64,000 bases of DNA, taken from assembly GCA_009782475.1 (NCBI GenBank), contig WRIZ01000002.1, positions 1 to 64,000 on the forward strand, read 5' to 3'. A program made the position numbers and the translations under genes. The stretch's first letter is position 1; each line of letters opens with the position of its first letter. Of the stretch, positions 1 through 56,526 are shown in pieces. This DNA comes from Oscillospiraceae bacterium. GTDB taxonomy: Bacteria; Bacillota; Clostridia; Oscillospirales; UBA929. A model generated the notes under the pieces. The model made no database searches, was not told where the DNA came from, and worked only from the letters and a program-made list of their open reading frames with translations.

Positions 1-101
1 AAAAGGCGATCCCCATTGACACACCGCTCGCCGAACATATCAATGCAAAGCGATACAAAGTTGATGATGAAGAACTGCTGAAACAACTCTGCGGTCTATG
101 A
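1..101 (+). CDS. 3' end of a hypothetical CDS running in from upstream of the window (stop TGA at 99-101)
   Basis: Open frame from the window edge, translating ...KRYKVDDEELLKQLCGL*. No recognisable domain. Confidence 0.25.
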   Translation, partial: KAIPIDTPLAEHINAKRYKVDDEELLKQLCGL

Positions 102-208
102 TGGTGTTTGTTATCAGGAAATTCAATCGCCGAAATATCTAAATAACGGGTTTCTGCGGTTGGTTTCCTGATAAGTCGGGATTTCTGATAAGGCAATAAA
201 TCATAAAT

Positions 209-847
209 TTATGATTTATTGCCATCTATGAGGTTGTATCTCCCTGGGCTGATCTCAGCAAGAATGACCGGGCACCGTAAATCGGCATCAGCACATTTAT
301 CAATCGGTATCTTGCTGGGCAAGGCCGTATGGTCCGCGACCAGAGTTTCCTTGAGGGGGTACTCACCATGATGGGTGGTTATATGCTCCAATAAGCGTGT
401 GATGTTGAAAATCCAGATGCCGTTTGCAAGATACTGGTCGCCTTCTCGTATTTCAAGCGGTTGGTAGTTTGGGTCGGGGAAAAGATATAAAGGGTGGCTT
501 TCACGTTTTAGCCGCTCCCGAGTTTTCTTGGTCAGTGATTTCAATATCAAATCGTAAGAATGGTCTATCTGACGGAAAATCTCGTTATCAGGGACGCTGC
601 CATCGCAAAGCACCCTGTTCCAGTGACCGCTTTTATCCGCCGGCTTAACGGCCGAATACTGTTTACGCAATAAATCGGCCAGCATGGGTTCGCACTTCAA
701 GGTGAGTTTAGTCACACCGTCTTTTTCGTAAATCGCAGTAAATACTTTACCCCCTGCTTTGAACGTGGCAGTAGAAGGGCCGAAGGGGTATTCCAATGCC
801 GCGTACCGTTTGGACAGGCAGTAATCCATCAGCTTTTGATCGGTCAT
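209..847 (-). CDS. MmcQ/YjbR-family predicted DNA-binding protein with an extra C-terminal domain
   Basis: 212-aa ORF. The N-terminal ~115 aa (MTDQKLMDYCLSKRYAALEYPFGP...GHWNRV) matches the MmcQ/YjbR (DUF419) pattern as I remember it. Confidence 0.45.
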   Translation of the reverse strand: MTDQKLMDYCLSKRYAALEYPFGPSTATFKAGGKVFTAIYEKDGVTKLTLKCEPMLADLLRKQYSAVKPADKSGHWNRVLCDGSVPDNEIFRQIDHSYDLILKSLTKKTRERLKRESHPLYLFPDPNYQPLEIREGDQYLANGIWIFNITRLLEHITTHHGEYPLKETLVADHTALPSKIPIDKCADADLRCPVILAEISPGRYNLIDGNKS

Positions 848-871
848 ACGTTCACCCCGGCAATATAGTAG

Positions 872-1129
872 CTACTGCTCATGCTCCTGACTCCACATTT
901 TCGGATTAAGCCCTAACTCCACAGCTGCACGGATAGGGTCGGCTGGAATTCCATTTTTCGCAAGCCGCTCGACTATTTGGGACAGCAGTATACATGAAGC
1001 CATTGCCGGTTCACTTTTGACAATGACCTGACACTCCCCGGTATCAGGATTGAGTGACGCAAATATCTCTGCGCTGTTGCCTTTGAGCAGTTCGACAATC
1101 ATTTTATCTGTCTGATCTTGCGTAAACAA
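872..1129 (-). CDS. hypothetical small protein
   Basis: 85-aa ORF in the same orientation as its neighbours. No recognisable motif. Confidence 0.3.
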   Translation of the reverse strand: MFTQDQTDKMIVELLKGNSAEIFASLNPDTGECQVIVKSEPAMASCILLSQIVERLAKNGIPADPIRAAVELGLNPKMWSQEHEQ

Positions 1130-1211
1130 TGCGATACGCCCCTTTCACGGTAAAACGGCGATTCAGGCCAAGACCTAAATCGCCGTTGCCTTCTTATCAG
1201 ACTCTATACCT

Positions 1212-1991
1212 CTACATCATCAGACTGCGTTTTATGAAATCGAGGAGCTGTACCGCGTCTCCTCCGGCTCTTGCTTTTATGTACAAGGAGGTCAGCAAGT
1301 GATGCGCGTCCTCCAATGATAGCTCGTCGGCAGCCTTTGCCAGTTCAGGGGAGTTCGAAAAATCGGATGAGAACATAGCTTTGGTTCCAGTTTTCGGAGA
1401 ATCATTCCCTTGCTCCTTGGAAACTCCCGGTGCGTCAGTTTTGTTTTCGGCATCACCACGCGGCTTTTGAACCGCAAGCCCTTGGGCTACCTTTGCATAT
1501 CCTTTTGTAGTAAGGAATGAAATGAGAATATCGTCGGTACATACTCCTTGTTCATCCACATCACCGGTAAGGTAAAGGGGGTTCAGGTTGAGTACCTGCC
1601 CAATGGCGACGGCAACTTTTGCGGTGATGACGCCGGTAGCGTAAACACGGTTGATGGATACTCGCTTCAAACCGGTCAGCGCGTCGATCTCATCCTTCTG
1701 CTTCCTTTTCGCGGCTTTTAAGACTTCCTTTGTCCGTTCCATAGTCAGATCGGCATTCGCGCTGACGTCTTTCCGTCCCATCGTTTGGATGACTTCCGCT
1801 GAGAGCATGATGATTTCCCCCTGTTTTTGTCGTTTGTTGCCTATATCATACCTCATAGCGGATTGAAGCGCAACTGTTATTTCATGCGGAGTACCTGCCT
1901 GTGGCGGTTCGATTACTGTTGTGCTTTCTGATGGCATATGGTAAAATTGGTCGAGGTTTGTAGAAGCGAACCACATGGCGGTCAAGATCAT
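1212..1991 (-). CDS. hypothetical protein with Lys/Glu-rich central and C-terminal parts
   Basis: 259-aa ORF. The start codon is uncertain and no conserved domain was recognised. It sits in an accessory-like context. Confidence 0.35.
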   Translation of the reverse strand: MILTAMWFASTNLDQFYHMPSESTTVIEPPQAGTPHEITVALQSAMRYDIGNKRQKQGEIIMLSAEVIQTMGRKDVSANADLTMERTKEVLKAAKRKQKDEIDALTGLKRVSINRVYATGVITAKVAVAIGQVLNLNPLYLTGDVDEQGVCTDDILISFLTTKGYAKVAQGLAVQKPRGDAENKTDAPGVSKEQGNDSPKTGTKAMFSSDFSNSPELAKAADELSLEDAHHLLTSLYIKARAGGDAVQLLDFIKRSLMM

Positions 1992-2012
1992 AATCAGAGG
2001 AGAACTCAGATC

Positions 2013-3296
2013 ATGTCATATGACAACGATAGGTTTTTTGAGAACCTTATGGGAACAGAGGCGGGTCAGCGCCTGTATGGAGCGACAAAAAGCCTTGTCA
2101 ACACAATGTTTGAAGGGTTGTCAGACTATGAAATAGCAAAGAGTATGCTTCCGAAAAAAGGAAACTATCGGGACGGCGCTTACAATTCCATGCAGGATAT
2201 CAAAGACGAGATCGACAACTGTCAAAGGGATATTCAAATGGTGAAAGCCGAAGCGGACACAGCCCGAAAACCGGGAGTCCGTTATGCTGAAATTCTTAGC
2301 AGGTTGTATAGCCGGGAGTCGTCGCTAAAAGCGGAACTGCAGGATCGGATAGAAGAAAGACGTGACCCTGCTGCCTACGCTGAGCAAAAGCGCATGGAGC
2401 GGTACAACAGTTTATATGAGCAGTCGAAAACTGCAACATCTGAATGGGAACTGAAAAGGCTTGTTGAGCAGTTGCGTGAACTTGATGGTTTCGAAGACTC
2501 TGAAGATTTGGCTGACGAAATAGAGCAGCGATATGAAAATCTCAAGAGCACACGCATTAGCAGCTCATACAGCAGCGAAATACAAAAGCTATCGGAGCTA
2601 AAAAAACAGTTTGATAGCAGAAATAAATTGACTCCGCACCAACTTCGAGAATTGGCGAATTCTTATAAGGAAAGAGCCCGCCAATTCAATGACCTTGAGG
2701 GATATAAATCATCTGTTGAAAAAGCAAAGGAATGCGAAAGGAATAGTGATACCGCGAGTAAATTAGCGGATACCAAGGAGCGAAGGGCAATTATTGCCCG
2801 AAAAACGGTTATAGGGGTAGGTATAGGCGTTCAGGTATGTGTGACAGCGTATTTCCTTTATACTCTCTATGGAACAGCAGCTATTCGCCAATTTACCGAG
2901 GCGGAAAAAGGGTCATGGGGTATCATGCACTCTTTGTTTATGCCGTTATGTTTGTTCGGCCTGACGCTGGCTTGCAATAGCATGATTTTTTTCAGGAAGA
3001 ACTTTATTTCCGGCGCGTTAACGCATCTGCCGTTATTCGGTGTCGCTATAGTCTACGCGGTTACACTGGCCAATTGGACAGATAGCGCATCATCGGACTT
3101 GCTTACCTTTGGCCTGCTATGCCTTGTTGCAATAATCCCGGGCTTTATATTGCTGTTACTAATGCAGAAGACATATTCTATTAAGTCAATCCCTATTTCT
3201 CTGATTCTTGTTGCTGCTGTAGTAATAGGTGGAAGATATGGGTTTCCTGCATTGGAAACTTTCATGCAATCATTACCGGAAATAGGGATAGGGTGA
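2013..3296 (+). CDS. hypothetical membrane protein with an N-terminal coiled-coil and C-terminal transmembrane helices
   Basis: ATG at 2013 is preceded by AGAGGAGA. The N-terminal ~260 aa are charged and coiled-coil-like. The C-terminal ~160 aa contain at least 4 hydrophobic helices. The gene ends in an ATGA overlap with the next gene. Confidence 0.5.
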   Translation: MSYDNDRFFENLMGTEAGQRLYGATKSLVNTMFEGLSDYEIAKSMLPKKGNYRDGAYNSMQDIKDEIDNCQRDIQMVKAEADTARKPGVRYAEILSRLYSRESSLKAELQDRIEERRDPAAYAEQKRMERYNSLYEQSKTATSEWELKRLVEQLRELDGFEDSEDLADEIEQRYENLKSTRISSSYSSEIQKLSELKKQFDSRNKLTPHQLRELANSYKERARQFNDLEGYKSSVEKAKECERNSDTASKLADTKERRAIIARKTVIGVGIGVQVCVTAYFLYTLYGTAAIRQFTEAEKGSWGIMHSLFMPLCLFGLTLACNSMIFFRKNFISGALTHLPLFGVAIVYAVTLANWTDSASSDLLTFGLLCLVAIIPGFILLLLMQKTYSIKSIPISLILVAAVVIGGRYGFPALETFMQSLPEIGIG

Positions 3297-4003
3297 GCAG
3301 TATGAATGATCTGACCGCTTTACTAAAAGATGAATTACTCCAACATGGCGCTGATATGGTCGGCATCGGAGATTTATCGGAACTGCCGCCGGATGTTCGC
3401 CATGATTTGACTGTCGGTATATCCGTTGCGGTGAAGTATCCTGACATAGTCATCCAAGGAATCGGAGAGTTCCCCACGGGAGCCTATAATAACTGGTACA
3501 TAAAGCTCAACGAGCGATTGGATATGCTGGTTACTTTGGGTGCGGAAAAGCTTCAATCCCTCGGTTATAAGGCAATCGCCATGACGCGGGCGTTCGTTGG
3601 AAATGGGGAGACGGAAAACAATACAGCCTTGCCGCATAAAACGGTGGCCACTCGCGCCGGCATAGGATGGATTGGGAAAAGCGCTTTACTGGTCACAGAA
3701 CAGTACGGCTCAATGATCCGCCTTTCATCCATTCTCACCGATGCCCCATTGGACACTGCCGAACCTGTCAACCAATCCAAGTGCGGGGACTGCATGATCT
3801 GCACGGTGGCCTGTCCGGCCGGGGCGATTTCGGGGCGAGAATGGAGTACCGAACTGTCCCGCGATGGGTTCTTTGACCCTGGCAAATGCCGCAAGACAGC
3901 CAAAGAGCGAGCATTCAAAGGATTTGGAGGAGGCAACACCATATGCGGAAAGTGCATTGAAATCTGCCCATACACGCGGCAAGCGTGGGGGAATGGACTT
4001 TGA
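3293..4003 (+). CDS. QueG-like (epoxyqueuosine-reductase-like) 4Fe-4S ferredoxin-domain protein, short form
   Basis: There are two Cys clusters, CGDCMICTVACP and CGKCIEICPY. The N-terminus (LQHGADMVGIGDLSELP) resembles the QueG N-domain. At 236 aa it has no room for a cobalamin domain. Confidence 0.55.
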   Translation: MSSMNDLTALLKDELLQHGADMVGIGDLSELPPDVRHDLTVGISVAVKYPDIVIQGIGEFPTGAYNNWYIKLNERLDMLVTLGAEKLQSLGYKAIAMTRAFVGNGETENNTALPHKTVATRAGIGWIGKSALLVTEQYGSMIRLSSILTDAPLDTAEPVNQSKCGDCMICTVACPAGAISGREWSTELSRDGFFDPGKCRKTAKERAFKGFGGGNTICGKCIEICPYTRQAWGNGL

Positions 4004-4067
4004 CGGGTTCTTCCGTATATGCTATAATATTTGAGGTTATTCAATAGATAGAGAGGGAGGACAACGT

Positions 4068-4661
4068 ATGGCTACGCTTTTGCTTTATCAAGGGCATGGG
4101 AGCTTTCGTCTCAGGTCAGGTGACGGAAAGGTCATCTTTGTGGATCCATACATCGGTGACGGTTACGATTTACCGGCTGATATAGTCTTGGTGACCCATC
4201 AGCATGGCGACCATAATCAAGTGCAGTTGGTCACCCAAAACCCTGGATGCCGTGTGATTACCAACAATGAAGCGTTGACAGGCGGTAAGCACCAATCGTT
4301 TTCGATTGACGGCATAGAAATACAATCCGTGGCTGCCGGCAACAAGAACCATGACCCTAACCAATGTGTTGGCTATATCATTACGCTTGATGGAGTGAAA
4401 GTATACGCGGCAGGGGATACCTCCAAGACCGGAAGCATGGAGTCTTTCGCGGACATGAGCATAGACTATGCGCTGCTGCCCACAGACGGTAAATACAACA
4501 TGGGCCTCGATGAAGCGGCAGAGTGTGCCCGCATTATTAAGGCAAAGCACAATGTCCCGATTCATATGAAACCGGGAGAACTGTTTGACCGTGACTACGC
4601 AGAAATGTTCTGCGCGCCGAATAGGCTGATTGTTGAGCCGGGGGAGGAGATTACGCTGTAG
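4068..4661 (+). CDS. MBL-fold metallo-hydrolase
   Basis: HQHGDH metal-binding motif (THQHGDHNQ), 197 aa. RBS GAGGGAGG lies upstream. Confidence 0.7.
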   Translation: MATLLLYQGHGSFRLRSGDGKVIFVDPYIGDGYDLPADIVLVTHQHGDHNQVQLVTQNPGCRVITNNEALTGGKHQSFSIDGIEIQSVAAGNKNHDPNQCVGYIITLDGVKVYAAGDTSKTGSMESFADMSIDYALLPTDGKYNMGLDEAAECARIIKAKHNVPIHMKPGELFDRDYAEMFCAPNRLIVEPGEEITL

Positions 4662-4665
4662 GCGG

Positions 4666-4703
4666 CGCACTTCAAGTCTTCTTGAAGTGCGTTGCATTTT
4701 CTT
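4666..4703 (+). terminator. Rho-independent terminator after the MBL hydrolase gene
   Basis: 11-bp stem cgcacttcaag / cttgaagtgcg with loop tctt, followed by ttgcattttctt. Confidence 0.6.
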
Positions 4704-4737
4704 AAAGAAAAAAGCAAAAATATTTTCAAAAAAACTA

Positions 4738-4768
4738 TTGACTTTGACGCTACGGAATAGTTTACACT
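4738..4768 (+). promoter_or_regulatory. MerR-type promoter: -35 TTGACT, 19-bp spacer, -10 TACACT
   Basis: A 19-bp spacer is the hallmark of MerR-regulated promoters. It lies directly upstream of the MerR-HTH gene, so autoregulation is plausible. The outer dyad CTATT..AATAG spans the -35 element and the spacer. Confidence 0.4.
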
Positions 4769-4790
4769 TGGTTTTAGGAGGTGAGGTCAG

Positions 4791-5798
4791 ATGGAATACA
4801 CCGTCAACAAACTCTCGAAATTGTCAGGGGTCAGCGCTCGTACGCTGCGTTATTACGATGAGATCGGCCTCTTGAAACCGGCTAAGGTCGCATCGTCAGG
4901 GTATCGCAGCTACGGGCAGTACGAAGTGGATATGTTGCAGCAGATTTTGTTCTACCGTGAACTCAATTTCTCGCTGGACGATATCCAGAAAATCATGACC
5001 GACCCCAATTTTGACCGGGAGCAGGCTTTCACAAACCATCTCACCGAGCTTCAAAACAAAAGTGTGCGGCTGGACGAATTGATTGTCAACGTCAAGAAGT
5101 CCATGGCCGCCATGAAAGGTGAGGGTACTATGTCGGTCAAAGAAAAATTCAAGGGGTTCAGCAAGACGAACAGAAACGTGGATGCCGTGTTGAAGGAAAT
5201 CTCCATCACCGGCAATGTAGCCGGAGGGTTGCTCCTCAATGAAATCGAGCAGGTGTTTGTCAACATCGGGGAAGAGAATGTAGAGTTCATTTATACCTTC
5301 CCGATGCCTGAAGACGCCTCGGTCACCAGTTTCTCTGCCATGATTGGAGATGAGCGATTCACAGGCGTGGTGCAGGAAAAGGAAGAAGCGCTGGAAAAAT
5401 ACCAGAAAGCCATTGTCAAGGGTGACAGCGCCTACATGCTTGAGAGTCATCGGGACAATATATTTCAAGCCTCTCTGGGTAACGTGGCAAAGGGCGAAAC
5501 GGTAACCGTTCACATCTCTTACATACAGGATGTCACGGTGTCCAATAATGAGATCAGATTGCTAATCCCTACCCTTGTCAGCCCGCGGTATATCCCCGGT
5601 AAGCCCATAGGCCCGAAAACAGGTATGGGCTCCGTCAATCCGACCGGGCAGGTTCCAGATGCGGATTTCATTACTCCTGTGATTGGCGAAACAGGTTATA
5701 AGGTTGATTTTAATCTCTCTTTTGAATTGGATAACAATATTAAAGAGATTTCCTCGCCGTCTCATGACATTACATCGACATTTGACGAAGGCAAATGA
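4791..5798 (+). CDS. MerR-family HTH regulator fused to a VIT domain. This is the N-terminal segment of a MerR-VIT-vWA protein and ends at an in-frame TGA.
   Basis: The N-terminus LSGVSARTLRYYDEIGLLKP is a MerR HTH, followed by a coiled-coil. Residues ~150-275 fit the VIT pattern (FPMPEDASVTSF...RLLIPTLVSPRY). Translation continues in the same frame after TGA 5796-5798. Confidence 0.7.
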   Translation: MEYTVNKLSKLSGVSARTLRYYDEIGLLKPAKVASSGYRSYGQYEVDMLQQILFYRELNFSLDDIQKIMTDPNFDREQAFTNHLTELQNKSVRLDELIVNVKKSMAAMKGEGTMSVKEKFKGFSKTNRNVDAVLKEISITGNVAGGLLLNEIEQVFVNIGEENVEFIYTFPMPEDASVTSFSAMIGDERFTGVVQEKEEALEKYQKAIVKGDSAYMLESHRDNIFQASLGNVAKGETVTVHISYIQDVTVSNNEIRLLIPTLVSPRYIPGKPIGPKTGMGSVNPTGQVPDADFITPVIGETGYKVDFNLSFELDNNIKEISSPSHDITSTFDEGK

Positions 5799-5840
5799 AC
5801 TGTTACTGTAAATCAGGCGGATCTGAACTCCGACTTTGTC

Positions 5841-7781
5841 TTGAACATTTCGCTGCTCGGCGTTACGGCCGAGAAGTTCATCGTTTCTCAAAAGACAGAT
5901 AGCGGGTATTTTTCCTATATCTCGTTTGTGCCAAGACTGAAAGCCGCGCCTTTTGCTAACAAGGAATATATTTACATGCTCGATATATCCTATTCAATGA
6001 GCGGCGAAAACTTGGAATCGGCGAAGAAGGCTCTGAAAATCTGTCTGAGAAACCTGGAAGCCGGCGACATTTTTAATATGATTGCCTTTGAAAGCAGCTT
6101 CGAGTGTTTTTCCGAGCGGGGTGTTGAGCTTACAGAGGACAGCTTCAAAAAAGCTAACCTGTGGATAGATCAGCAAACCAGCCGTGGCGGTACGGAAATC
6201 TTCCCGGCCCTGCGGTATGCTGTGGAAAGCATGAAGAATGAACACGACATAGAAAAGATTATTATGCTCCTGACGGACGGTCAGGTGGGCAATGAGGACG
6301 AGATTATCAAATATGTCAAGGGCAATTTCGATGGCCGCGTCTTCTGCGTGGGAATCGACGTCAATGTCAACGACAGCTTCTTAAACAAAGTATCTACTGT
6401 AGGCAACGGCTATACAGAGTTCTATTACCCGGACAGTAATGAAGACCTTGCCGGAAAAATCGTAAGGCAATTCGCCAGATCAAATGCCGCGTATCTCAAG
6501 GACATTAAGTTCAAAGCGGATTGCAAAATCGAGGTGGCCGGCAAGCCGCCTAAATACCTCTACAGTGATGAATGCTGCAACATCATCTTGAAATCGGACG
6601 ACTGTATTGACTTTTTACGCGTTATCGGGTCTTCCGACGAGGGCGAGATGACGTTGGAGTTCCCGGTGACAGACACCAACGGCAATCCAGAGCTGTTCAG
6701 TAAAATGTGGGCCAAGAAGAGGATAACTGATTATGAACGCGATGCGTTCGATATCAACCCGAGACACGAGAAGCTGGCAAAAGAAAAGATTATCGAAATA
6801 AGCGTCATGTATGGCGTGATATGTCGCTATACCAGCTTTATCGCGCTGAATGAGCGTGAGAGCAAACAGGTGAATCTGCCCAAAGCGGTAGCCGTTCCGG
6901 TCAATGCGCCGAAGAGGAAAGCAGCAAAATCTTCTGGCGGAGGAATCTTGGGCAGAGGGCTTTTCAGCGAAATGAAGATGCTCAGTAGGCCATATTCAGA
7001 CGATGATACTGAAGACTTTGTCTGCTATAGTAGGTCTCCGCGCGAACAAGAGAGACGGTCGCAAGAGAGACTTGAAATGAAACGGCTAATGAGGCCAATA
7101 GATGATGCCGATGATTTCTCTGAATTTATGCCCCGAAGCGCAAGCATTCCGCCACCGCCTCCTAGTGCCGCATATGCTCCAAGTGCATCTGTGCAAAGCA
7201 GCGATGCCGATGAGAGCGATCCTTTCGAGAGCATATTCCGCATCTTTAATAGATCTTCGGCAACGAGGCCGCAGCCAGAAGGCAAAAGCAAAATCCAGCC
7301 TCTTGTCCTAAGATTTTTCAAGGAAATCTCTGATAGAGACACCCCAGTATCAGAATCGGAGTTCAAACTCGACATACGGGCAAAGATCATCGAGCTGTCT
7401 AAGCATTGCGACGCCATTGACTTTGCTGTGTGCTTCAATGAGATGGATCAGATTCTATCGGCTGTCGAGCAGTTTGTCGGGAAGGGCGATCAAGCATTTG
7501 ACGACAGTTTCCAAAAGTTGCTTCAACTGTTGGATGAGAACTGCCGCTTAAACGATGCGTCCTTAAAGTCCGCCGATATTGCCAGTATGCAGAATTTCGA
7601 CGGCTCGTTCTGCCAGTGCAGTCAGCTGAAAAAGAAGTATACCTTGGTCGCGGCGAAGCGGTTTATCAGCGACAGCGATTCATTCCTGTATAGCAGGCAA
7701 ATCAAAAAGCTGGTTGAATTTTTCCGCCGGACAGACGCCACTGTTTTGGAGGATTCTTGCTTTGCCGAATACTTGAAGTAA
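5841..7781 (+). CDS. von Willebrand factor A (vWA) domain protein, continuing the upstream VIT ORF in frame. It carries an internal copy of the FtsZ C-terminal peptide.
   Basis: vWA MIDAS region YMLDISYSMSGENL...LTDGQ. Then a Pro-rich disordered linker (PPPPPSAAYAPS) ending in DESDPFESIFRIFNRSS, then an alpha-helical C-terminal domain. It is in the same frame as 4791..5798, and the intervening codons read TVTVNQADLNSDFVLNISL. Confidence 0.7.
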   Translation: MNISLLGVTAEKFIVSQKTDSGYFSYISFVPRLKAAPFANKEYIYMLDISYSMSGENLESAKKALKICLRNLEAGDIFNMIAFESSFECFSERGVELTEDSFKKANLWIDQQTSRGGTEIFPALRYAVESMKNEHDIEKIIMLLTDGQVGNEDEIIKYVKGNFDGRVFCVGIDVNVNDSFLNKVSTVGNGYTEFYYPDSNEDLAGKIVRQFARSNAAYLKDIKFKADCKIEVAGKPPKYLYSDECCNIILKSDDCIDFLRVIGSSDEGEMTLEFPVTDTNGNPELFSKMWAKKRITDYERDAFDINPRHEKLAKEKIIEISVMYGVICRYTSFIALNERESKQVNLPKAVAVPVNAPKRKAAKSSGGGILGRGLFSEMKMLSRPYSDDDTEDFVCYSRSPREQERRSQERLEMKRLMRPIDDADDFSEFMPRSASIPPPPPSAAYAPSASVQSSDADESDPFESIFRIFNRSSATRPQPEGKSKIQPLVLRFFKEISDRDTPVSESEFKLDIRAKIIELSKHCDAIDFAVCFNEMDQILSAVEQFVGKGDQAFDDSFQKLLQLLDENCRLNDASLKSADIASMQNFDGSFCQCSQLKKKYTLVAAKRFISDSDSFLYSRQIKKLVEFFRRTDATVLEDSCFAEYLK

Positions 7782-7841
7782 AAAGCTGCAATAGGCAATG
7801 GGCGGGTTGACTAATAACCCGCCCATTGCTATATCTCTTCA

Positions 7842-8717
7842 TCATGCCGTTTGTTGCTTCTGCCAAGCGCAAAGCAGATCGGTTATGACTTGATTCATCT
7901 GAGATGCCGTGTAATCCGCAGGGAAGAATCTACGAAATCCTCCGACGTCTTTTTCTGTGTTCGAATCTGATTTAGTTTTCGCAAGCACCTTTTCAATCGC
8001 GGCAACGGTGAGTTCCCCGGCTTGGCTCAGTTTCTTGAGTTGTATTGCCTGCGAGAGCATCGGCTTGACCTGATATTTCATCATTGCCTCTACCACAGAT
8101 GCTTGTTCCGAACGCGAGAGATGGGACAATTCCACGGCAGGATTGAACGCAAGCCGATTTGCGTCCACCTTGTCAAGCAGATCAGGAACCAATTCAGTCA
8201 GCCGGATTAGCCGAAAAATCTGGTTTCTGCTTTCGCCGGTCTGCTCGACCAACACATCCACGGAGTGCATATCGCTTTTGACTCCGTTGTGGTTCAGTGC
8301 TTCCATCTTAACACGGTAGGCCCACGCCTTTTCGCTGGGCAGGATTTTCTCCCGCTGTTCCAAATTCGAATCTACCATCGCTATGGCGGCGCTGTCATCG
8401 TCCATTTCGCGTATGATAACAGGCATGGTGACTATCCCGGCGAGTTCGGAAGCCCGTTTGCGTCGGTTCCCGGCAATAAGCTCATAACCACCCTCGGCTC
8501 TTGGCCGGACAAGACCGGGCTCACGGACGCCATACTGCTTCACGCTGTTTACAAGCCGTTTCATAGCAGCATCATCAAGAACCTGAAATGGGTGATACTC
8601 AGGAGGGTAGAGTTCAGTGAGCGGGAGGTCAACGATACGCTCGACATCCGCTTCAACGCCAAAAATCTCGTTGTGACCGGCAAGGGCAAGGTTGCCGAAT
8701 GTTCCTGTCTTACGCAA
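7842..8717 (-). CDS. parB: ParB/Spo0J-family partition protein
   Basis: ParB N-terminal domain: GVREPGLVRP...YELIAGNRRKRASELAG, a GERR-box variant. 291 aa. It overlaps parA by 8 bp. Confidence 0.8.
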   Translation of the reverse strand: MRKTGTFGNLALAGHNEIFGVEADVERIVDLPLTELYPPEYHPFQVLDDAAMKRLVNSVKQYGVREPGLVRPRAEGGYELIAGNRRKRASELAGIVTMPVIIREMDDDSAAIAMVDSNLEQREKILPSEKAWAYRVKMEALNHNGVKSDMHSVDVLVEQTGESRNQIFRLIRLTELVPDLLDKVDANRLAFNPAVELSHLSRSEQASVVEAMMKYQVKPMLSQAIQLKKLSQAGELTVAAIEKVLAKTKSDSNTEKDVGGFRRFFPADYTASQMNQVITDLLCAWQKQQTA

Positions 8718-9498
8718 TCTTCAGCACCTCCTCGGTGAGCGTGGCATACGCCGCCGCGACTTTTCCGGTGGGATCATAGGCGAAGATGCTTTTTCCTTCC
8801 GCGCTGGTTTCCGCGGCACGGACAGAGCGGGGAATACGCTCCCTAAAAATGTGGATATCGCTGCCGTATGCGCTTTCGATGAGAGAGATGATCTCGCGGG
8901 TATAGTTCATCCGTTTGTCAACCATTGTAAGTAAAATGCCGCCAATTGCAAGATTGGGGTTGAAATGCCGCTGCACCTGTGATATAGTCTTAAGCAGCAG
9001 TTCAAGCCCTTTGGCATCAAGGTATCCCGCTATAACTGGAATGAGTACGCAGTCTGACGCGGTAAGCGCGTTGATGGTCAGAAGACCGAGCGATGGCGAT
9101 GTGTCAACGATAACGAAGTCATACATCGGTTTCAACGTATCGATGTACTGCCGGAGTATGGTTTCACGCCCCACCATCACTGAGGCTAAAGCGAGTTCCG
9201 TGCCTGACAGACTGTTGTTAGCGGGAAGAAAGTCAATGCCCTCGCTGTGATGGAGGATGCCGCTTGTCGGGTCGATTGGGGTTTCGCGTAAGATGGCGTC
9301 CATTGCGGTTGTGAGCGTGACGGGGAGTTTATCCGGCTCTCTGACGCCAAGACTGATAGTGAGGGAGTGTTGCGGGTCGGCATCGAGAAGGAGAACACTT
9401 GCTCCGCTTTTTGCCAGTCCGACACCAAGGCTCACGGCGGTCATGGTCTTTCCCACACCACCTTTGCGATTGGAAACGCAGATTGTTTTGCCCATATG
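8710..9498 (-). CDS. parA: ParA/Soj-family partition ATPase
   Basis: Deviant Walker A KGGVGKT. The likely start is MGKTICVSN at 9495/9498, preceded by an AAAGGAAAG RBS. The ORF is open upstream as far as 9630. Confidence 0.8.
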   Translation of the reverse strand, partial: HMGKTICVSNRKGGVGKTMTAVSLGVGLAKSGASVLLLDADPQHSLTISLGVREPDKLPVTLTTAMDAILRETPIDPTSGILHHSEGIDFLPANNSLSGTELALASVMVGRETILRQYIDTLKPMYDFVIVDTSPSLGLLTINALTASDCVLIPVIAGYLDAKGLELLLKTISQVQRHFNPNLAIGGILLTMVDKRMNYTREIISLIESAYGSDIHIFRERIPRSVRAAETSAEGKSIFAYDPTGKVAAAYATLTEEVLKIA

Positions 9499-9687
9499 GT
9501 TCTTTCCTTTCCGGTTGGATTTTGGGACATTGGCATTTGTCGTATACTTAACATCAGCTATAGTATTGGACAAAAGGGTCCCAATCTTGAAGTGGAAAAA
9601 GGGTAGAAATGAATAACGACAAACCCGCAACCCATTGATAACACAGGTTTTTAGGATTTGTCGTAATTATACCATAAGGGCAGTTGT

Positions 9688-9719
9688 CCCATAAACGAAC
9701 CGTGAGGTTCGTTTATGGG
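9688..9719. repeat. perfect 14-bp inverted repeat (hairpin) in the parA upstream / divergent intergenic region
   Basis: cccataaacgaacc gtga ggttcgtttatggg. There is no U-tract on either strand. It may be an operator or recognition site. Confidence 0.5.
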
Positions 9720-9878
9720 CATCTTTATGCTCTGATCGCCGTGAACGTGGGGACGGTCGGGTGAGTATGACCCCTATTATGAGGATAAGCTGGGGTATGA
9801 GTACAAACCTAACCCAAATCCCCGGCATACTGGCGTGTTGCAAAAAGATAAAGTCTACCTTGAGAGGAAATTGTGACA

Positions 9879-10340
9879 ATGAATAACAACGAAAATCTGC
9901 GGTTAAGAGACCCCGAAGTGACGCCGTCGGACGAATTGCTCCGGCAAACGCTTGGCGACAGCTATGCCGCATATGAAACGCTCCAAGAGGCTTTGCCCGG
10001 CTTAGAGATGGAGCAGGAATGGCAATGGTATACGCCCCACAAGGCGTGGTTTGCAAAAGGGCAGCACTTTTGGATAACGCCGCGTGGAGCAAAGAAAGAG
10101 AAAAATCTATACTGGCTTCATGTGTATGAAGGTGTTTTCAGCGTAGCGGTTTGGTTCAAGGAAAAAAACCGCGCGGAGATTCTGAGAGCCAATGTGAACG
10201 AAACAACAAAACAGTTGATTCGTGACTCCGAGACATATGGAAAGGTACCTACCTTCCCGGTAGTATTTGACATCACCACATCAGAGCTTCCTGCCGATAT
10301 TTGCACGCTCATAGACTGCAAAAAAAGATTGGAGAGATGA
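9879..10340 (+). CDS. DUF3788-like protein (paralog of 29094..29618)
   Basis: Pattern LGDSYAAYETL ... LYWLHVYEGVFSVAVWFKEKNR matches the other copy (LGDASAAWEHL ... LLSLHLRDGFFLVSVTLGGKER). Family name is from memory. Confidence 0.35.
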   Translation: MNNNENLRLRDPEVTPSDELLRQTLGDSYAAYETLQEALPGLEMEQEWQWYTPHKAWFAKGQHFWITPRGAKKEKNLYWLHVYEGVFSVAVWFKEKNRAEILRANVNETTKQLIRDSETYGKVPTFPVVFDITTSELPADICTLIDCKKRLER

Positions 10341-10517
10341 GAAAATAAGGATCATGGACAGGTGCGGCGTTTTACGCCAATGAATCGGTATAATTATATC
10401 GATAAATATATATCTATATTCCGAATATATATTTCCCATAACTGCGGCGATGTACTAATATAATACTATCCCGGTATTTTAGAAAAACACGCCGGAGATG
10501 AGGAGTGGAAATCAATC

Positions 10518-13124
10518 GTGAGCAAGCAATACGAGACCGTGAACAGCGTTGAATCTTTACATGCCGCCTTTGAACGGGTACGCGCCGCCCAAAACCAATT
10601 CGCCTCTTTTACGCAGGAGCAGGTGGATGCCATTTTCCGCGCGGCGGCCACCGCGGCGAACCGATCGCGCATACCGCTGGCAAAGCTGGCGGTGGAGGAA
10701 ACGGGTATGGGCGTCGCGGAAGACAAGGTCATCAAAAACCATTACGCCGCCGAGTATGTATACAACGCGTATAAGGACACGAAAACCTGCGGATTGATCG
10801 GGGACGATCCCGCGGGCGGTTATCATACATACGCCGAACCAATGGGGGTCATCGCGGCGGTCATCCCAACCACAAACCCGACGTCAACGGCCATTTTCAA
10901 GGCTCTGATCGCCCTGAAGACCCGCAACGGCATCATCTTCAGCCCCCACCCAAGAGCCAAAGGCTGTACCATTGCCGCGGCAAAAACGGTATTGGACGCC
11001 GCCGTGAAAGCCGGTGCGCCGGAGGGCATTATCGGCTGGATTGACGCGCCTAATTTGGAACTGACCAACCTGGTCATGAAGGAAGCGGATGTCATCTTGG
11101 CGACCGGCGGGCCAAGCATGGTGAAAGCGGCCTATTCCAGCGGCAAACCGGCCATCGGCGTGGGCGCGGGCAATGTTCCGGCGATTATCGACGATACGGC
11201 GGACATCCTTTTGGCGGTAAACTCCATCATACACTCGAAGACCTTCGACAACGGGATGATCTGCGCTTCGGAGCAGGCCGTGATCGTCTTGGATTCACGG
11301 GTTGAAGAGGTGAAAAACGAGTTTGGTAAGCGCGGATGCCATATACTCAGCCCGGAAGAGACAGAGAAGGTTCGCAAAACCATCATCATAAACGGCTCGC
11401 TGAATGCCAAAATTGTCGGGCAGACGGCGCATACGATCGCCGGACTCGCCGGTGTGACCGTTCCGAAAACAACAAAAATCCTGATCGGGGAAGTGGAAAG
11501 CGTTGAACTAAGCGAGGAGTTTGCGCATGAAAAACTATCTCCCGTGCTGGCTATGTACAAGGCAAAAGACTTTGAAGACGCGCTGCAAAAAGCGGAACGC
11601 CTAGTCTTTGACGGCGGCATGGGGCATACGGCCTCCATTTATCTTGACCCGTTAACGGCAAAGGAAAAGCTGGAACAATTCACCGCGCGGATGAAAACCT
11701 GCCGCATCCTTCTCAACACACCGTCCTCACACGGGGGGATCGGGGATTTATACAATTTCAAGCTCCGGCCGTCACTTACCTTAGGCTGCGGTTCGTGGGG
11801 CGGAAATTCGATCAGCGAAAACGTCGGCGTAAAGCATCTGCTGAATATAAAAGTTGTGGCTGAGAGGAGAGAAAATATGCTTTGGTTCCGCACACCCGAA
11901 AAAATCTATCTCAAACGCGGATGCCTGCCGGTCGCTTTGGATGAGCTGAAATCCGTGCTCGGCAAGAAACGCGTCTTTATCGTCACAGACGGATTCCTGT
12001 ATAAAGGCGGCTTTGCCAAAGCTGTCACCGGGAAACTGGACGAAATGGGGATCACGCACACAACATTCTTCGATGTTGAGCCTGACCCGACGCTGGTCTC
12101 GGCGCGCGAGGGCGCGAAACAGATGGCGGCCTTCGAGCCGGATGCCATCATCGCCATCGGCGGCGGCAGCCCGATGGACGCCGCGAAGATCATGTGGCTG
12201 CTGTACGAACACCCGGAGGCGGATTTCGAGGATATGGCCATGCGGTTTATGGACATCCGCAAACGGGTTTACGGTTTCCCGAGCCTAAAAACATACTTTA
12301 TTGCCATTCCCACCACGGCAGGCACCGGCAGCGAGGTGACCCCCTTTGCGGTCATAACCGACGAAACCACAGGGATCAAATACCCGCTGGCGGATTATGA
12401 GCTTATGCCCGACATGGCGATCGTTGACGCCGACCTGATGATGCAGGCTCCCAAAGGATTGACGGCCGCGAGCGGCATCGACGCAGTCTCTCACGCGCTG
12501 GAAGCGTATGCCTCCATGCTCGCCACCGACTATACCGATTCTCTTGCGCTGGGTGCGTTGAAATCATTGTTCGCGTATCTGCCCCGAGCCTATGAAAATG
12601 GCGCAGACGACCCGGAAGCCCGTGAAAAAGTCGCTAATGCCGCGACCATGGCGGGCATGGCGTTTGCCAACGCATTCCTCGGCGTCTGCCACTCGATGGC
12701 GCATAAGCTGGGAGCCTATCATCATTTGCCCCACGGTGTAGCAAACGCGCTGCTGATCGGCGAGGTCATCCGCTTCAACGCCTCCGAAGCCCCCGCGAAA
12801 ATGGGGTCATTTTCGCAGTACGATCACCCGCACACCCTGTCGCGTTACGCTTCGATTGCCGACGCGCTGGGGTTGGGCGGCAAGACCGATGAGGATAAAC
12901 TGCAGCAACTGCTGGATGCTGTTGAACGGTTGAAAGAGAATGTTGGCATCCAAAAAACCATCCGCGATTATGGCGTGGATGAAAAGGATTTCCTTGACCG
13001 GCTGGACGAAATGACAGAAAATGCTTTTGACGATCAATGCACCGGAGCCAATCCCCGCTATCCGCTGTTTGCCGAGATTAGGCAGATGTATCTGAACGCT
13101 TATTATGGAGGCGAAGAAAAATGA
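10518..13124 (+). CDS. adhE: bifunctional acetaldehyde-CoA / alcohol dehydrogenase
   Basis: 868 aa. The N-terminal part is an aldehyde dehydrogenase domain. The C-terminal part is an iron-dependent alcohol dehydrogenase (GGGSPMDAAK, HSMAHKLGAYHHLPHG). GTG start. Confidence 0.95.
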   Translation: MSKQYETVNSVESLHAAFERVRAAQNQFASFTQEQVDAIFRAAATAANRSRIPLAKLAVEETGMGVAEDKVIKNHYAAEYVYNAYKDTKTCGLIGDDPAGGYHTYAEPMGVIAAVIPTTNPTSTAIFKALIALKTRNGIIFSPHPRAKGCTIAAAKTVLDAAVKAGAPEGIIGWIDAPNLELTNLVMKEADVILATGGPSMVKAAYSSGKPAIGVGAGNVPAIIDDTADILLAVNSIIHSKTFDNGMICASEQAVIVLDSRVEEVKNEFGKRGCHILSPEETEKVRKTIIINGSLNAKIVGQTAHTIAGLAGVTVPKTTKILIGEVESVELSEEFAHEKLSPVLAMYKAKDFEDALQKAERLVFDGGMGHTASIYLDPLTAKEKLEQFTARMKTCRILLNTPSSHGGIGDLYNFKLRPSLTLGCGSWGGNSISENVGVKHLLNIKVVAERRENMLWFRTPEKIYLKRGCLPVALDELKSVLGKKRVFIVTDGFLYKGGFAKAVTGKLDEMGITHTTFFDVEPDPTLVSAREGAKQMAAFEPDAIIAIGGGSPMDAAKIMWLLYEHPEADFEDMAMRFMDIRKRVYGFPSLKTYFIAIPTTAGTGSEVTPFAVITDETTGIKYPLADYELMPDMAIVDADLMMQAPKGLTAASGIDAVSHALEAYASMLATDYTDSLALGALKSLFAYLPRAYENGADDPEAREKVANAATMAGMAFANAFLGVCHSMAHKLGAYHHLPHGVANALLIGEVIRFNASEAPAKMGSFSQYDHPHTLSRYASIADALGLGGKTDEDKLQQLLDAVERLKENVGIQKTIRDYGVDEKDFLDRLDEMTENAFDDQCTGANPRYPLFAEIRQMYLNAYYGGEEK

Positions 13125-14548: not shown

Positions 14549-15466
14549 ATGAGATATGCCATCGAAGTCGAAAAAGCCGGCTCCATTTCCAAAGCCGCTG
14601 AGAACCTGTTTATGAGCCAGCCCAACTTGAGCAAAGCGATCAAAGAATTGGAGACTATGATCGGCGTCCCGCTGTTCAACCGCACGACCAAAGGCGTGTC
14701 TTCCATTACGGAAGACGGGCGCGTTTTTATTGAGTACGCACAAAATATATTGGTGCAGCTTGAGAATATGAAGCAGCATTTTCAGCACAGTCCTGCCGGG
14801 AAAAATTCACTTCGCCTCTCTGTCCCGCGCGCGAGTTATATTTCCGAGGCGTTCGCGTCGTTTGTCAATGAACTGGGATCGGATGATTTTAGCATCAAAT
14901 ATTATGAAACAAGCTCATTTCAAGCCATTGAAAATGTAAGTAAGAACGAATGCGATTTTGGGATCATCCGTTACCTTACGTTATACGAAAACACCTTCCT
15001 ATCCTTGCTTCAGGAGAAAGAACTTGAGCACCGGACAATATTGACGTCCGACGGCGTTATCGTCATGAACGCTCAAAACAAACTTGCCGGTAAACCCGCG
15101 CTGCGGTTTCTTGATTTAGAGACTATGATCGAAATTGTCAATGACGATTTTTCCATGCCCCGGCGGGCGGACGGCGACAAAGAAAGCCATGTAAACAAAA
15201 AGCGGGTCTATGTGTATGAGAGGGGAAGCCAGTTTGATCTGCTGACCCATGTGCCGGACGCGTTCATGTGGGTATCCCCCATGCCCAAAGATGTGCTGGC
15301 GCGTAACACGCTGGTTCAAAAACAATGTCCGGGAAAGCCGTTTCAGGATGTGCTTATTGTTCGGAAAGGTCATGATTTCAGCGATTATGAACGGCTTTTT
15401 ATCAGCAGGGTAGAACAGCTCACGCGCTTCGGCTCTGTATCTCGTTCTCAAGGAAAGACCGAATAA
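14549..15466 (+). CDS. LysR-family transcriptional regulator
   Basis: HTH MRYAIEVEKAGSISKAAENLFMSQPNLSKAIKELE, followed by a LysR substrate-binding domain. The longer track ORF starting at 14312 overlaps rex and was rejected. Confidence 0.8.
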   Translation: MRYAIEVEKAGSISKAAENLFMSQPNLSKAIKELETMIGVPLFNRTTKGVSSITEDGRVFIEYAQNILVQLENMKQHFQHSPAGKNSLRLSVPRASYISEAFASFVNELGSDDFSIKYYETSSFQAIENVSKNECDFGIIRYLTLYENTFLSLLQEKELEHRTILTSDGVIVMNAQNKLAGKPALRFLDLETMIEIVNDDFSMPRRADGDKESHVNKKRVYVYERGSQFDLLTHVPDAFMWVSPMPKDVLARNTLVQKQCPGKPFQDVLIVRKGHDFSDYERLFISRVEQLTRFGSVSRSQGKTE

Positions 15467-15887
15467 ACGGAATGCTCCCCTCGTCAACGGGAAAGAGGAA
15501 GCAGGTGTAACGGCATTTGTGATATTGTGAACCCTTGACAGAGAAATCATAACCCTTGCCGCACTTTGGGTTGCACATTTTGCAGTCCGGCGACTTTGCG
15601 ACGGATTTAACCATCGCGTCCGGCAGGGTTTCTAAGAAGTCTATGTATTGACCGATCATGTCGCTGTAGATACGGATCAGAAGGCCGATTTTCCGAAAGA
15701 CGAAGTTCAGCAGAACCTTCTTGTTTTTCCCGTGTGAATACGAAACGACATACCCGTTTTTGGCGAGCTGGAGTTTGAGTTTGCACCCGTTTTCCAATAA
15801 ATAGACGTGTGTCTGCTTGACAAAGTCTTGATAGACCGGGTTCACATTTGACAGGAAATCCTCAAAGCTCAATTCTTGATCCGGCAT
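15420..15887 (-). CDS. hypothetical protein with a Cys-rich C-terminus
   Basis: Start MPDQELSFEDF with GGAGGA 9 nt upstream. It contains CKMCNPKCGKG and HKCRYTC. Convergent with the LysR gene end. Confidence 0.4.
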   Translation of the reverse strand: MPDQELSFEDFLSNVNPVYQDFVKQTHVYLLENGCKLKLQLAKNGYVVSYSHGKNKKVLLNFVFRKIGLLIRIYSDMIGQYIDFLETLPDAMVKSVAKSPDCKMCNPKCGKGYDFSVKGSQYHKCRYTCFLFPVDEGSIPFIRSFLENEIQSRSA

Positions 15888-15963
15888 AGGTATTGATCCT
15901 CCATTCGTAAATATGGTATCATTATAACACAATGGGAGATATGTTTATAGAGGGGACTGTTGG

Positions 15964-16449
15964 ATGATGAACGTTGAGATAGCATCTGCGCAATTAGAAG
16001 ATATGGAAGCAGTCTTGCGGCTTCAATATACCGCCTATCAAAGCGAGGCGGCAATTCATGGCGACTATACCATACAACCGCTCAGACAGACGTTGGATGA
16101 GCTTATCGATGAATTTCACAAGGGTGTTATCCTGAAGGCGGTGCGGGACGGCGCAATCATCGGCTCCGTGAGGGCATACGCGGAAGGCGGCACGGTGTAT
16201 ATAGGGAAGCTGATCGTGCATCCAAACCATCAAGGCAAAGGTTTGGGCAAGCGTCTGCTTGCGGAGGCGGAAGGCAAACTCTGCCGCAAGAGGTTTGAAC
16301 TGTTCACCAGCTGCAAGAGCGATCGAAATCTGCACCTATATGAGAAGTCGGGGTATAAACGCTTCCGCGAGGAAACGGATACAGCCGGAATCCGGTTTGT
16401 TTACTTGGAAAAGGAGAATGAGCCGAAAACGGAACATGACGAAAGATGA
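15964..16449 (+). CDS. GNAT-family N-acetyltransferase
   Basis: Acetyl-CoA motif HPNHQGKGLGKRLLAEAE. Confidence 0.8.
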   Translation: MMNVEIASAQLEDMEAVLRLQYTAYQSEAAIHGDYTIQPLRQTLDELIDEFHKGVILKAVRDGAIIGSVRAYAEGGTVYIGKLIVHPNHQGKGLGKRLLAEAEGKLCRKRFELFTSCKSDRNLHLYEKSGYKRFREETDTAGIRFVYLEKENEPKTEHDER

Positions 16450-52211: not shown

Positions 52212-52979
52212 ATGCCGGGAGAAAGAAAGCGCAGACGGCGGGGAAGGTATAGCTTTTTGCTGACCTTCTTTGTTGCCGCCGCGCTTATTTTTGCATTTGT
52301 GCTGACAAGCGGCTTTTTCTTCAAAATCAAGCACATCGAATTTGAGGGCGTATCGGTCACAAGCCAGGCAAAAATCAAAGAGCTTTTGGGGTTTTCCGAA
52401 GGCGATCATATCTTCCTCATCAATAAATCAGGTTCGGCCAATTCGATTTTGGCCAACATGCCTTATGTCAAAACAGTCCGCATCAAGCGGAGCCTGCCGG
52501 GCACGGTGCTGGTGATCATCACCGAAGCCGAACCGGCGGCCATGATCGAATACAGGGGCGAGGTTTGGCTGTTTGACGCGCAGGGGAAACTCTTGGAGTC
52601 CGTTGCGTCTTATAACACGCCCGATCTGCCGGTTGTAACGGGGTTTGAGCTGTTCAGCCCCATGGAAGGCACAACCATTTATCCGGCGTTTGAAGATACC
52701 GCGAAGAAAGAACCGCTGCTGGAATTGCTTCAAACAATGCGGGAGGAAGGGATATGGGAAGGCGTCGGGGAAATCGATCTGACGCAAATCTCCAATATTT
52801 GCTTTACCTATAACGAAATCTATACGGTGGAACTGGGGCTGCCGAACAAGTTTGACCGGAAGATTCAAATCATGAATCAAGCCTTGCAGGATGAGAAAGT
52901 CTCCGGCAGAGGGGCGGGAACGCTTTATCTTGCGGACGCGGGGGAAAAGCCTGTGAGATTCGTCCCGGGGGGTGATTGA
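52212..52979 (+). CDS. ftsQ: cell division protein FtsQ/DivIB (POTRA)
   Basis: N-terminal TM, then a POTRA-like KIKHIEFEGVSVTS. Confidence 0.75.
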   Translation: MPGERKRRRRGRYSFLLTFFVAAALIFAFVLTSGFFFKIKHIEFEGVSVTSQAKIKELLGFSEGDHIFLINKSGSANSILANMPYVKTVRIKRSLPGTVLVIITEAEPAAMIEYRGEVWLFDAQGKLLESVASYNTPDLPVVTGFELFSPMEGTTIYPAFEDTAKKEPLLELLQTMREEGIWEGVGEIDLTQISNICFTYNEIYTVELGLPNKFDRKIQIMNQALQDEKVSGRGAGTLYLADAGEKPVRFVPGGD

Positions 52980-54604: not shown

Positions 54605-54634
54605 TCCGAGGGTTTACCATCGTTACGTATTTCT

Positions 54635-56329: not shown

Positions 56330-56425
56330 ATGTTTTCTTACACACAGTATAACCCATTTTATGTGAGCTGCGTGTGATAAATGGTATGTTCACCGTGAGA
56401 ATGCTGTGAGGAAAATTCTTCCTTG

Positions 56426-56457
56426 CCGGACAAGGCGCGTTGCCGCGCCCTGTCCGG
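56426..56457 (-). terminator. imperfect 13-bp hairpin downstream of the GLUG gene (candidate terminator)
   Basis: ccggacaaggcgc gttgcc gcgccctgtccgg. Confidence 0.35.
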
Positions 56458-56526
56458 GGAAGGGTTGCGTCTAGTATAGTATATGCTGTGGGGATACGCG
56501 AATTTACACGAAAATTGTTGAATTAT

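Follow-up and report, generated by a model that had tools for sequence, protein, structure and literature searches.

The FtsZ C-terminal peptide recurs unchanged in the linker of a split VIT-vWA gene from an Oscillospiraceae genome

Two copies of an FtsZ tail peptide in one window

The stretch of DNA analysed here (the window) comprises 64,000 nucleotides of an Oscillospiraceae genome (contig WRIZ01000002.1, positions 1 to 64,000) and encodes the peptide DPFESIFRIFN twice on the + strand, once at 7218..7250 within an open reading frame (ORF) for a von Willebrand factor A (vWA) domain protein (5841..7781, + strand), and once at 59847..59879, at the 3' end of ftsZ. The latter gene (58722..59888, + strand) encodes a protein of 388 amino acids with Pfam Tubulin (4.3e-50) and FtsZ_C (3.4e-34) domains and a C-terminal linker terminating in EEDPFESIFRIFNKK. 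Its DPFESIFRIFN, which is conserved in Oscillospiraceae FtsZ tails, is the FtsZ C-terminal peptide (CTP) of which the vWA-borne sequence is a copy. No third DPFESIFRIFN site was found in the six-frame translation of the window. The exact 11-residue match had been reported in an initial annotation made from the letters of the window, and it was confirmed, with 11 of 11 residues identical and both sites on the + strand; the 17-mer DESDPFESIFRIFNRSS, to which the coordinates 7218..7250 had been given, in fact occupies 7209..7259. The translation of the vWA ORF includes ...SSDADESDPFESIFRIFNRSSATRP..., and that of FtsZ terminates in ...KEEPAEEDPFESIFRIFNKK. The immediate flanks are E-S-DPFESIFRIFN-R in the vWA ORF and E-E-DPFESIFRIFN-K in FtsZ, which have in common Glu at position -2 and, at +1, a basic residue.

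The 11-residue match lies far beyond chance. On a position-specific scoring matrix (PSSM) derived from 31 distinct FtsZ tails, FtsZ itself scored 52.6 bits and the vWA site 42.6 bits, while every other site among the 19,304 residues of the window proteins scored -1.0 bits or less. Shuffled vWA proteins reached a maximum of 15.3 bits, compared with 40.5-42.6 bits for the vWA site, and the local alignment between the FtsZ tail and the vWA protein gave a score of 66, compared with 25.5 +/- 3.6 for shuffles. The matrix and the alignment thus bear out the earlier view that a chance match is negligible.

At the DNA level, the two copies differ at 11 of 33 bases and in 8 of 11 codons (9 of 10 had been counted initially), and all these differences are synonymous. 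The Ser codon is AGC in the vWA copy and TCG in the ftsZ copy, and the Arg codons are CGC and AGA, respectively, both pairs belonging to different codon families. The DNA identity of the two copies (22/33) is not above the 25.1/33 expected from independent back-translation, and none of 2,000,000 random variants of the ftsZ copy with 11 substitutions preserved the peptide. These data support the proposed selection at the protein level, and protein-level constraint would be the simplest explanation for the shared peptide.

The peptide in Oscillospiraceae FtsZ

The FtsZ CTP (also termed CCTP or CTC) is a hub that anchors and regulates the Z-ring, and in model bacteria it serves as the docking site for FtsA, ZipA, SepF, EzrA, ZapD, MinC and SlmA. 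The tails of the 120 FtsZ proteins closest to that of the window follow the pattern [ED][ED]DPF[ED]xIF[KR]IFN[KR][KR] or near variants, in agreement with the earlier identification of the peptide as the conserved FtsZ C-terminal peptide. Nearly all the named members of this set are Oscillospiraceae, Oscillibacter, Flavonifractor or Lawsonibacter. Because of this consensus tail, and because exact DPFESIFRIFN occurs in about 35 of the 120 proteins, the peptide can be regarded as the Oscillospiraceae lineage-specific form of the CTP. The canonical CTP, D-I/V-P-x-F-L-R/K, and the Oscillospiraceae CTP, DPFxxIFxIFN, diverge in sequence. Binding of SepF to the FtsZ C-terminus is known in B. subtilis (PMC3418248).

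The vWA copy is identical to the lineage CTP and resembles it in setting as well, with a disordered linker and an acidic patch before it, basic residues after it and a predicted amphipathic helix. Unlike the CTP of FtsZ, however, it is not at the extreme C-terminus (residues 460-470 of 646) and is internal to a VIT-vWA protein that has a folded domain downstream of the peptide and contains no Tubulin or FtsZ_C domain.

Architecture of the vWA protein

The ORF at 5841..7781, which starts with TTG and is named VWA domain-containing protein by NCBI (in an Oscillospiraceae metagenome-assembled genome), encodes 646 amino acids. Residues 1-334 hold a vWA domain (Pfam VWA_3, 4.7e-16) with a beta-sandwich and helices, residues 335-477 form a disordered linker, and residues 478-646 make up a helical domain at the C-terminus. 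The metal ion-dependent adhesion site (MIDAS) of the vWA domain is complete, with D48, S50, S52, T118 and D146 invariant in the alignment. An AlphaFold2 (AF2) model, built on a 67-sequence alignment and having a mean predicted local distance difference test (pLDDT) score of 79.4, showed confident folds at residues 9-334 and 478-646, the second of them all helical. These are separated by a region of ~140 residues, in which pLDDT is <50 for residues 345-403 and 415-477, and the motif appears inside this low-scoring region as a predicted isolated amphipathic helix (461-470). The best Foldseek match was ITIH1 (6fpy, E 8.5e-18), and archaeal ArnB was also among the top structural relatives.

The linker (6843..7271, + strand), delimited by pLDDT and by alignment columns 620-800, is rich in Pro, Ser and Ala, hypervariable among homologues and terminated by the acidic patch SSDADES. 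The C-terminal all-helical domain (7272..7778, + strand; pLDDT 84-98) is common to the closest homologues and has a conserved QNxDGSF motif, with A581, Q584, D587, G588, S589 and F590 invariant; no known family was found for it, and its PDB sequence search gave no significant match (best E 0.05). It had been suggested that the whole linker-plus-tail architecture was copied from FtsZ. Ahead of the peptide there is indeed a disordered linker rich in Pro, Ser and Ala, with an acidic patch after it, but copying of the linker itself has no statistical support. In pairwise comparisons, the vWA linker resembled some FtsZ linkers, such as that of P0133 (score 57, p < 1/3000, uncorrected for 120 comparisons), whereas a profile of 60 FtsZ linkers gave 3.5 bits on the vWA linker, inside the shuffle range. 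Because the profile did not confirm the pairwise hint, we rejected whole-linker homology and treat the resemblance as apparently compositional.

A stop codon within the gene

The N-terminal half of the VIT-vWA gene lies in a preceding ORF of 335 amino acids (4791..5798, + strand), which contains a MerR helix-turn-helix (HTH; residues 3-70; Pfam MerR_1, 1.8e-17) and a VIT domain (134-244; Pfam VIT, 3.5e-30). The MerR domain also matches Pfam MerR (8.2e-14), in this ORF only; the MerR-DNA-bind model scored 23.1 bits, below its 25.4-bit cut-off, and the VIT domain occupies the place of the usual MerR effector region. This ORF and 5841..7781 are in the same frame and are split by an in-frame TGA (5796..5798, + strand). 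The single MerR-VIT-vWA protein with a DNA-binding head that had been described initially was therefore revised, since the MerR and VIT domains are on the separate ORF, and the VIT and vWA domains are not on a single polypeptide in either of two assemblies.

The position of the TGA is occupied by Gly in the three closest homologues, which would fit a GGA-to-TGA change. An independent ENA assembly (L056) carries this TGA as well. It differs from the window by 6 single-nucleotide polymorphisms (SNPs), counted beyond the ~500 bases at the start of the contig, where the two sequences do not match. All four coding SNPs are synonymous, and three of these are inside the split gene. Because the TGA recurs in the second assembly and the SNPs are synonymous, the split is real, and either recent or tolerated. 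An assembly error behind the TGA is unlikely, as the second assembly, 6 SNPs apart, carries the same codon. Recoding of the TGA, for example as selenocysteine, was also rejected, since TGA stops 24 window genes, the homologues have Gly and not Cys at this position, and there is no notable downstream RNA fold (z +0.40). Downstream of the TGA, the ORF is intact and retains all family-invariant residues.

The homologues of the vWA protein are VIT-vWA proteins of ~780-890 amino acids that have no MerR domain; the fusion of a MerR HTH (4791..5120) to VIT is unique to this gene, a MerR domain being absent from all 120 VIT-vWA homologues according to precomputed Pfam lists. Like ITIH and VWA5A-type proteins, the split gene encodes a VIT followed by a vWA domain with MIDAS, in keeping with the ITIH1 fold match. 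It differs from them in being bacterial, in its MerR fusion, split gene, long disordered linker and extra helical domain, and in that no signal peptide was seen.

Searches for further copies and for a donor

Further occurrences of the peptide were sought in genomes, metagenomes, viral sequences and protein clusters. A degenerate-DNA scan of 185,579 GTDB species genomes for DPF[ED]xIFxIFN without an early stop gave 37 loci, namely 36 FtsZ tails and one chance frame of 37 codons; the scan is not exhaustive, because its stop-codon filter also removes real sites with a T-initial codon at +3/+4, including the window's own site. The exact peptide occurred at 14 loci in JGI metagenomes, all of them FtsZ, and the motif scan of IMG/VR gave 0 loci. 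A search of 1.84 billion cluster representatives with a tail profile, which covers representatives only and to which non-representatives such as the window vWA protein are invisible, yielded 95 matches, all being FtsZ or fragments thereof except P0241 and P0311.

The 14 metagenomic ftsZ tails have at most 26 of 33 bases in common with the vWA copy, and their Ser codon is TCN (or ACN) throughout, AGC being found only in the vWA copy. A recent DNA copy from the host ftsZ (22/33), from any other sampled ftsZ (<= 26/33) or from P0311 (48% identity) is excluded by these base identities; hence the earlier statement that no recent DNA duplication took place holds for the host ftsZ and for every sampled ftsZ. 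The vWA copy may stem from an old capture under strict selection, or from convergence or capture from an unsampled donor.

Headless FtsZ proteins with the same CTP

The two exceptions in the profile search, P0241 and P0311, are members of a family of 16 clusters (P0311, P0336-P0349 and P0241) that we refer to as headless FtsZ, with loci outside the window (L057 7907-9430, L059 10001-11284 and L060 576-1763); no member of this family is encoded in the window. These proteins consist of a helical N-terminal domain, a homologue of the FtsZ C-terminal domain, an acidic linker and a conserved Oscillospiraceae-type CTP, with no GTPase domain. The homology was found by hhalign (98.2% probability, E 3.8e-14, FtsZ residues 206-314), and it is on hhalign that the FtsZ_C assignment of P0311 rests, the AF2 model of P0311 being of low confidence and Foldseek uninformative. 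Four members have two CTPs, the second one internal. In 2 of the 3 contexts examined (P0241 and P0344; L057 and L059), the neighbouring genes (serine recombinase, AAA_25, IS1595 or GmrSD) are suggestive of mobile elements; P0311 has no such neighbours.

The presence of conserved CTPs without a GTPase domain in this family shows the CTP to be a portable module in organisms with Oscillospiraceae-type FtsZ. The CTP of headless FtsZ, like that of the vWA protein, occurs in the absence of a tubulin GTPase domain and is preceded by an acidic linker. The two differ in that headless FtsZ is FtsZ-derived by descent, whereas the vWA protein has the peptide alone in common with it. The tail of P0311 resembles the vWA context slightly past the CTP (N[KR]SS..P.P). 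However, the vWA segment and the P0311 DNA share only 48% identity and 4 of 17 codons, so P0311 is not a recent donor.

A possible docking-motif mimic and its alternatives

Tentatively, and with a probability that we place somewhat short of even, we favour the view that the vWA peptide is functional and, as a docking-motif mimic, engages the partners that bind the FtsZ tail; this is the most economical reading. Accordingly, a cytoplasmic VIT-vWA protein would present a working copy of the lineage CTP as a short amphipathic helix where its long disordered linker ends, and this copy would be recognized by the same proteins that bind the FtsZ tail in the host, for which FtsA, SepF, ZapA, MinC and EzrA-type proteins are candidates from model organisms. 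The vWA protein would then be recruited to the membrane-anchored division machinery, or would compete with FtsZ for its anchors. Here we infer binding to FtsZ-tail partners, expression of the downstream ORF past the TGA and an effect on division.

Several observations weigh against this reading. The motif-bearing gene is interrupted by the TGA in two assemblies, and no Shine-Dalgarno-like sequence was seen upstream of the annotated TTG start of 5841..7781; expression of this ORF is uncertain because of these two features. The motif helix in the AF2 model has low confidence (pLDDT 37-46) and is docked on no domain, and neither ftsA nor sepF, two genes for FtsZ-tail partners, is in the window. 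No orthologue above 58% identity was present in about 15 billion proteins. In 120 homologues, the full CTP was not found once, none contains DPF, and none scored above the PSSM shuffle range. P0004 is the only homologue located on the same contig (L052) as its own ftsZ, the product of which terminates in ...DADTPFEIPIFLQRKRN, and it does not contain that tail (alignment score 21, p = 0.90). Family-wide mimicry of FtsZ tails was accordingly rejected, and the suggestion in the initial annotation that homologues in other species might carry the CTP of their own FtsZ met with a negative answer, both in the 120 homologues and in P0004. The acquisition of the peptide is thus, as far as these homologues indicate, specific to one gene and not a property of the VIT-vWA family. 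The only hint among homologues came from P0005 (43% identical; L062 3405..5972), the linker of which has DDDVFDDIF and then DDEVFDDIL at residues ~632-655; DDDVFDDIF matches the first half of the Oscillospiraceae CTP (19.7 bits, p < 1/2000, half-motif PSSM). The P0005 contig (L062) and L056 are from the same ENA sample. Our confidence in a docking-motif mimic is limited because the motif is a singleton and the gene is split, and the estimate is held down by the restriction to one gene in one uncultured lineage, by the split and by a binding step that we infer.

A neutral capture is unlikely in our estimation. In this scenario, the vWA gene was moving horizontally, and its hypervariable linker took up by recombination a fragment of either an ftsZ 3' end or a headless-FtsZ gene belonging to a different Oscillospiraceae genome. 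The peptide would be intact solely on account of how recent the event was, and the gene would already be decaying, as the TGA would show. The motif is a singleton in the VIT-vWA family, and it is found in a split gene, broken by a stop codon, in a region of lower G+C content at third codon positions (GC3; 0.45-0.60 vs 0.65-0.75). Many codon sets encode the peptide across species, so foreign donor DNA would differ from the host ftsZ. Nevertheless, no donor was sampled, the best ftsZ sharing 26/33 bases with the vWA copy and all of them using the other Ser codon family. The likeness of the P0311 tail to the vWA context past the CTP is likewise offset by the DNA (48% identical, 4/17 codons the same), and the pairwise likeness of the vWA and P0133 linkers (score 57, p < 1/3000, uncorrected) by the FtsZ-linker profile, for which 3.5 bits falls in the shuffle range. 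Moreover, the remainder of the ORF is free of other lesions.

It is improbable that in FtsZ and the vWA protein alike the peptide serves as an amphipathic helix for membrane binding, in the style of the MinD or FtsA targeting sequences, by which the vWA protein would reach the membrane and not FtsZ partners. F3, I6, F7, I9 and F10 would fall on one helix face, with basic residues after them, and MinD-like amphipathic stretches are present in the linkers of the homologues P0010 (GSFFRKIFGGKKKK) and P0006 (GGLFKKLFKAEE). These stretches, however, were not significant in the half-motif PSSM test, amphipathicity alone cannot account for an 11/11 identity that includes D, P, E, S and N, and the preceding acidic patch is typical of FtsZ CTPs and not of membrane-targeting sequences. 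A still more improbable idea is an autoinhibitory pseudo-ligand, in which the vWA protein, by way of its MIDAS or its C-terminal domain, is itself a binder of the acidic FtsZ tail and the internal copy fills that site in cis until displaced: MIDAS sites of vWA and integrin I domains bind acidic ligand residues, the MIDAS is complete here (DxSxS...T...D invariant) and the copy is only about 8 residues N-terminal of the C-terminal domain, but AF2 docks the helix on no domain (pLDDT 37-46), and homologues are without such an element, so ancestral FtsZ-tail binding is unlikely.

Relation to known systems and significance

The nearest analogue of a docking-motif mimic is the GpsB-recognition motif (S/T/N)RxxR(R/K), which is common to the C-terminus of S. 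aureus FtsZ and to PBP4 and is bound by the same adaptor, the binding having been shown (Sacco et al., eLife 2024, PMC11062636). In both cases a short linear motif of the FtsZ tail recurs in a second protein. The GpsB motif, in contrast, lies in the variable tip of the FtsZ tail and has a known partner, whereas the vWA protein, a candidate mimic, copies the core CTP. In the literature searched, we found no report of a natural protein unrelated to FtsZ bearing an exact core FtsZ tail peptide. The vWA peptide can be placed within short-linear-motif sharing around the FtsZ tail, and is probably a rare borrowing of the FtsZ handle.

SlmA, a TetR family protein, is described in one report as a binder of the FtsZ tail (PMC4117426). 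Together with Noc (ParB family), it offers, as an idea, the likeness of a DNA-binding protein tied to the FtsZ-tail network. The differences are that SlmA binds the tail whereas the vWA protein carries it, that MerR is on a separate ORF, and that the vWA and MerR ORFs have no TetR or ParB domain in Pfam. The nucleoid-occlusion-like role proposed in the initial annotation is weakened by the placement of the MerR head on a separate ORF and by its absence from every homologue.

If functional, the vWA peptide would represent a competitor or adaptor of natural origin for the partners of the FtsZ tail, and hence a ready-made probe for binders of the unusual DPFxxIFxIFN tail, and it would set a precedent for short-linear-motif mimicry within the bacterial division machinery. 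Taken together with the headless-FtsZ family, it would suggest that abundant gut anaerobes carry a class of division modulators among their accessory genes. A wider proposal, which we consider quite unlikely, is that FtsZ-tail decoys are an accessory-gene strategy in Oscillospiraceae, such that the VIT-vWA protein (possibly with the MerR-VIT half and ParAB) and headless FtsZ hijack or titrate the FtsA or SepF anchors, delaying host division or tethering element DNA to the division site. If the peptide was captured neutrally, it is merely a curiosity.

Genomic context

The vWA gene is convergent with a divergent parB-like gene (7842..8717, - strand; Pfam ParB_N, 2.4e-18), next to which is a divergent parA-like gene (8710..9630, - strand; Pfam AAA_31, 2.1e-46); we report both genes as context only. 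The parAB pair noted earlier beside the vWA gene is therefore present, at 7842..9630. In NCBIfam, only a generic ParB domain model was above its cut-off for the parB-like protein, the Noc model giving 90 bits vs a cut-off of 315. No parAB neighbours were present in the closest homologue neighbourhoods examined.

The window is chromosomal, with mraZ, mraY, murG, murA, ftsQ, ftsZ, uvrC, thiI and pyrB present. GC3 is 0.45-0.60 for the genes from 0.2 to 10.3 kb, including the split gene and parAB, vs 0.65-0.75 for core genes. The first 10 kb of the window are thus compositionally atypical, in line with the accessory setting ascribed to the vWA gene at the outset, and the low-GC3 block is compatible with horizontal acquisition. 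Genes for YjbR, DUF3788, MBL-fold and Fe-S proteins also lie in this block (1..10340). The window ORFs scanned with Pfam included no integrase, and searches of the window yielded neither a tRNA nor a close plasmid relative nor a match to a defence system; assignment to a defence system, a plasmid or a tRNA-flanked island was dropped for lack of a match to any of them.

The interval between ftsQ and ftsZ, a frequent site of ftsA, contains three lower-GC genes in the window (52976..58413), coding for a 7-WG-repeat protein, a protein of 564 amino acids without a Pfam or NCBIfam match, and a protein of 628 amino acids with a weak GLUG-motif match. In the organism of P0004 (L052), the VIT-vWA homologue (8001..10673) is located ~4.5 kb upstream of ftsQ-ftsZ (ftsZ, 15133..16329), compared with a distance of 51 kb from ftsZ in the window, and this proximity may be a coincidence.

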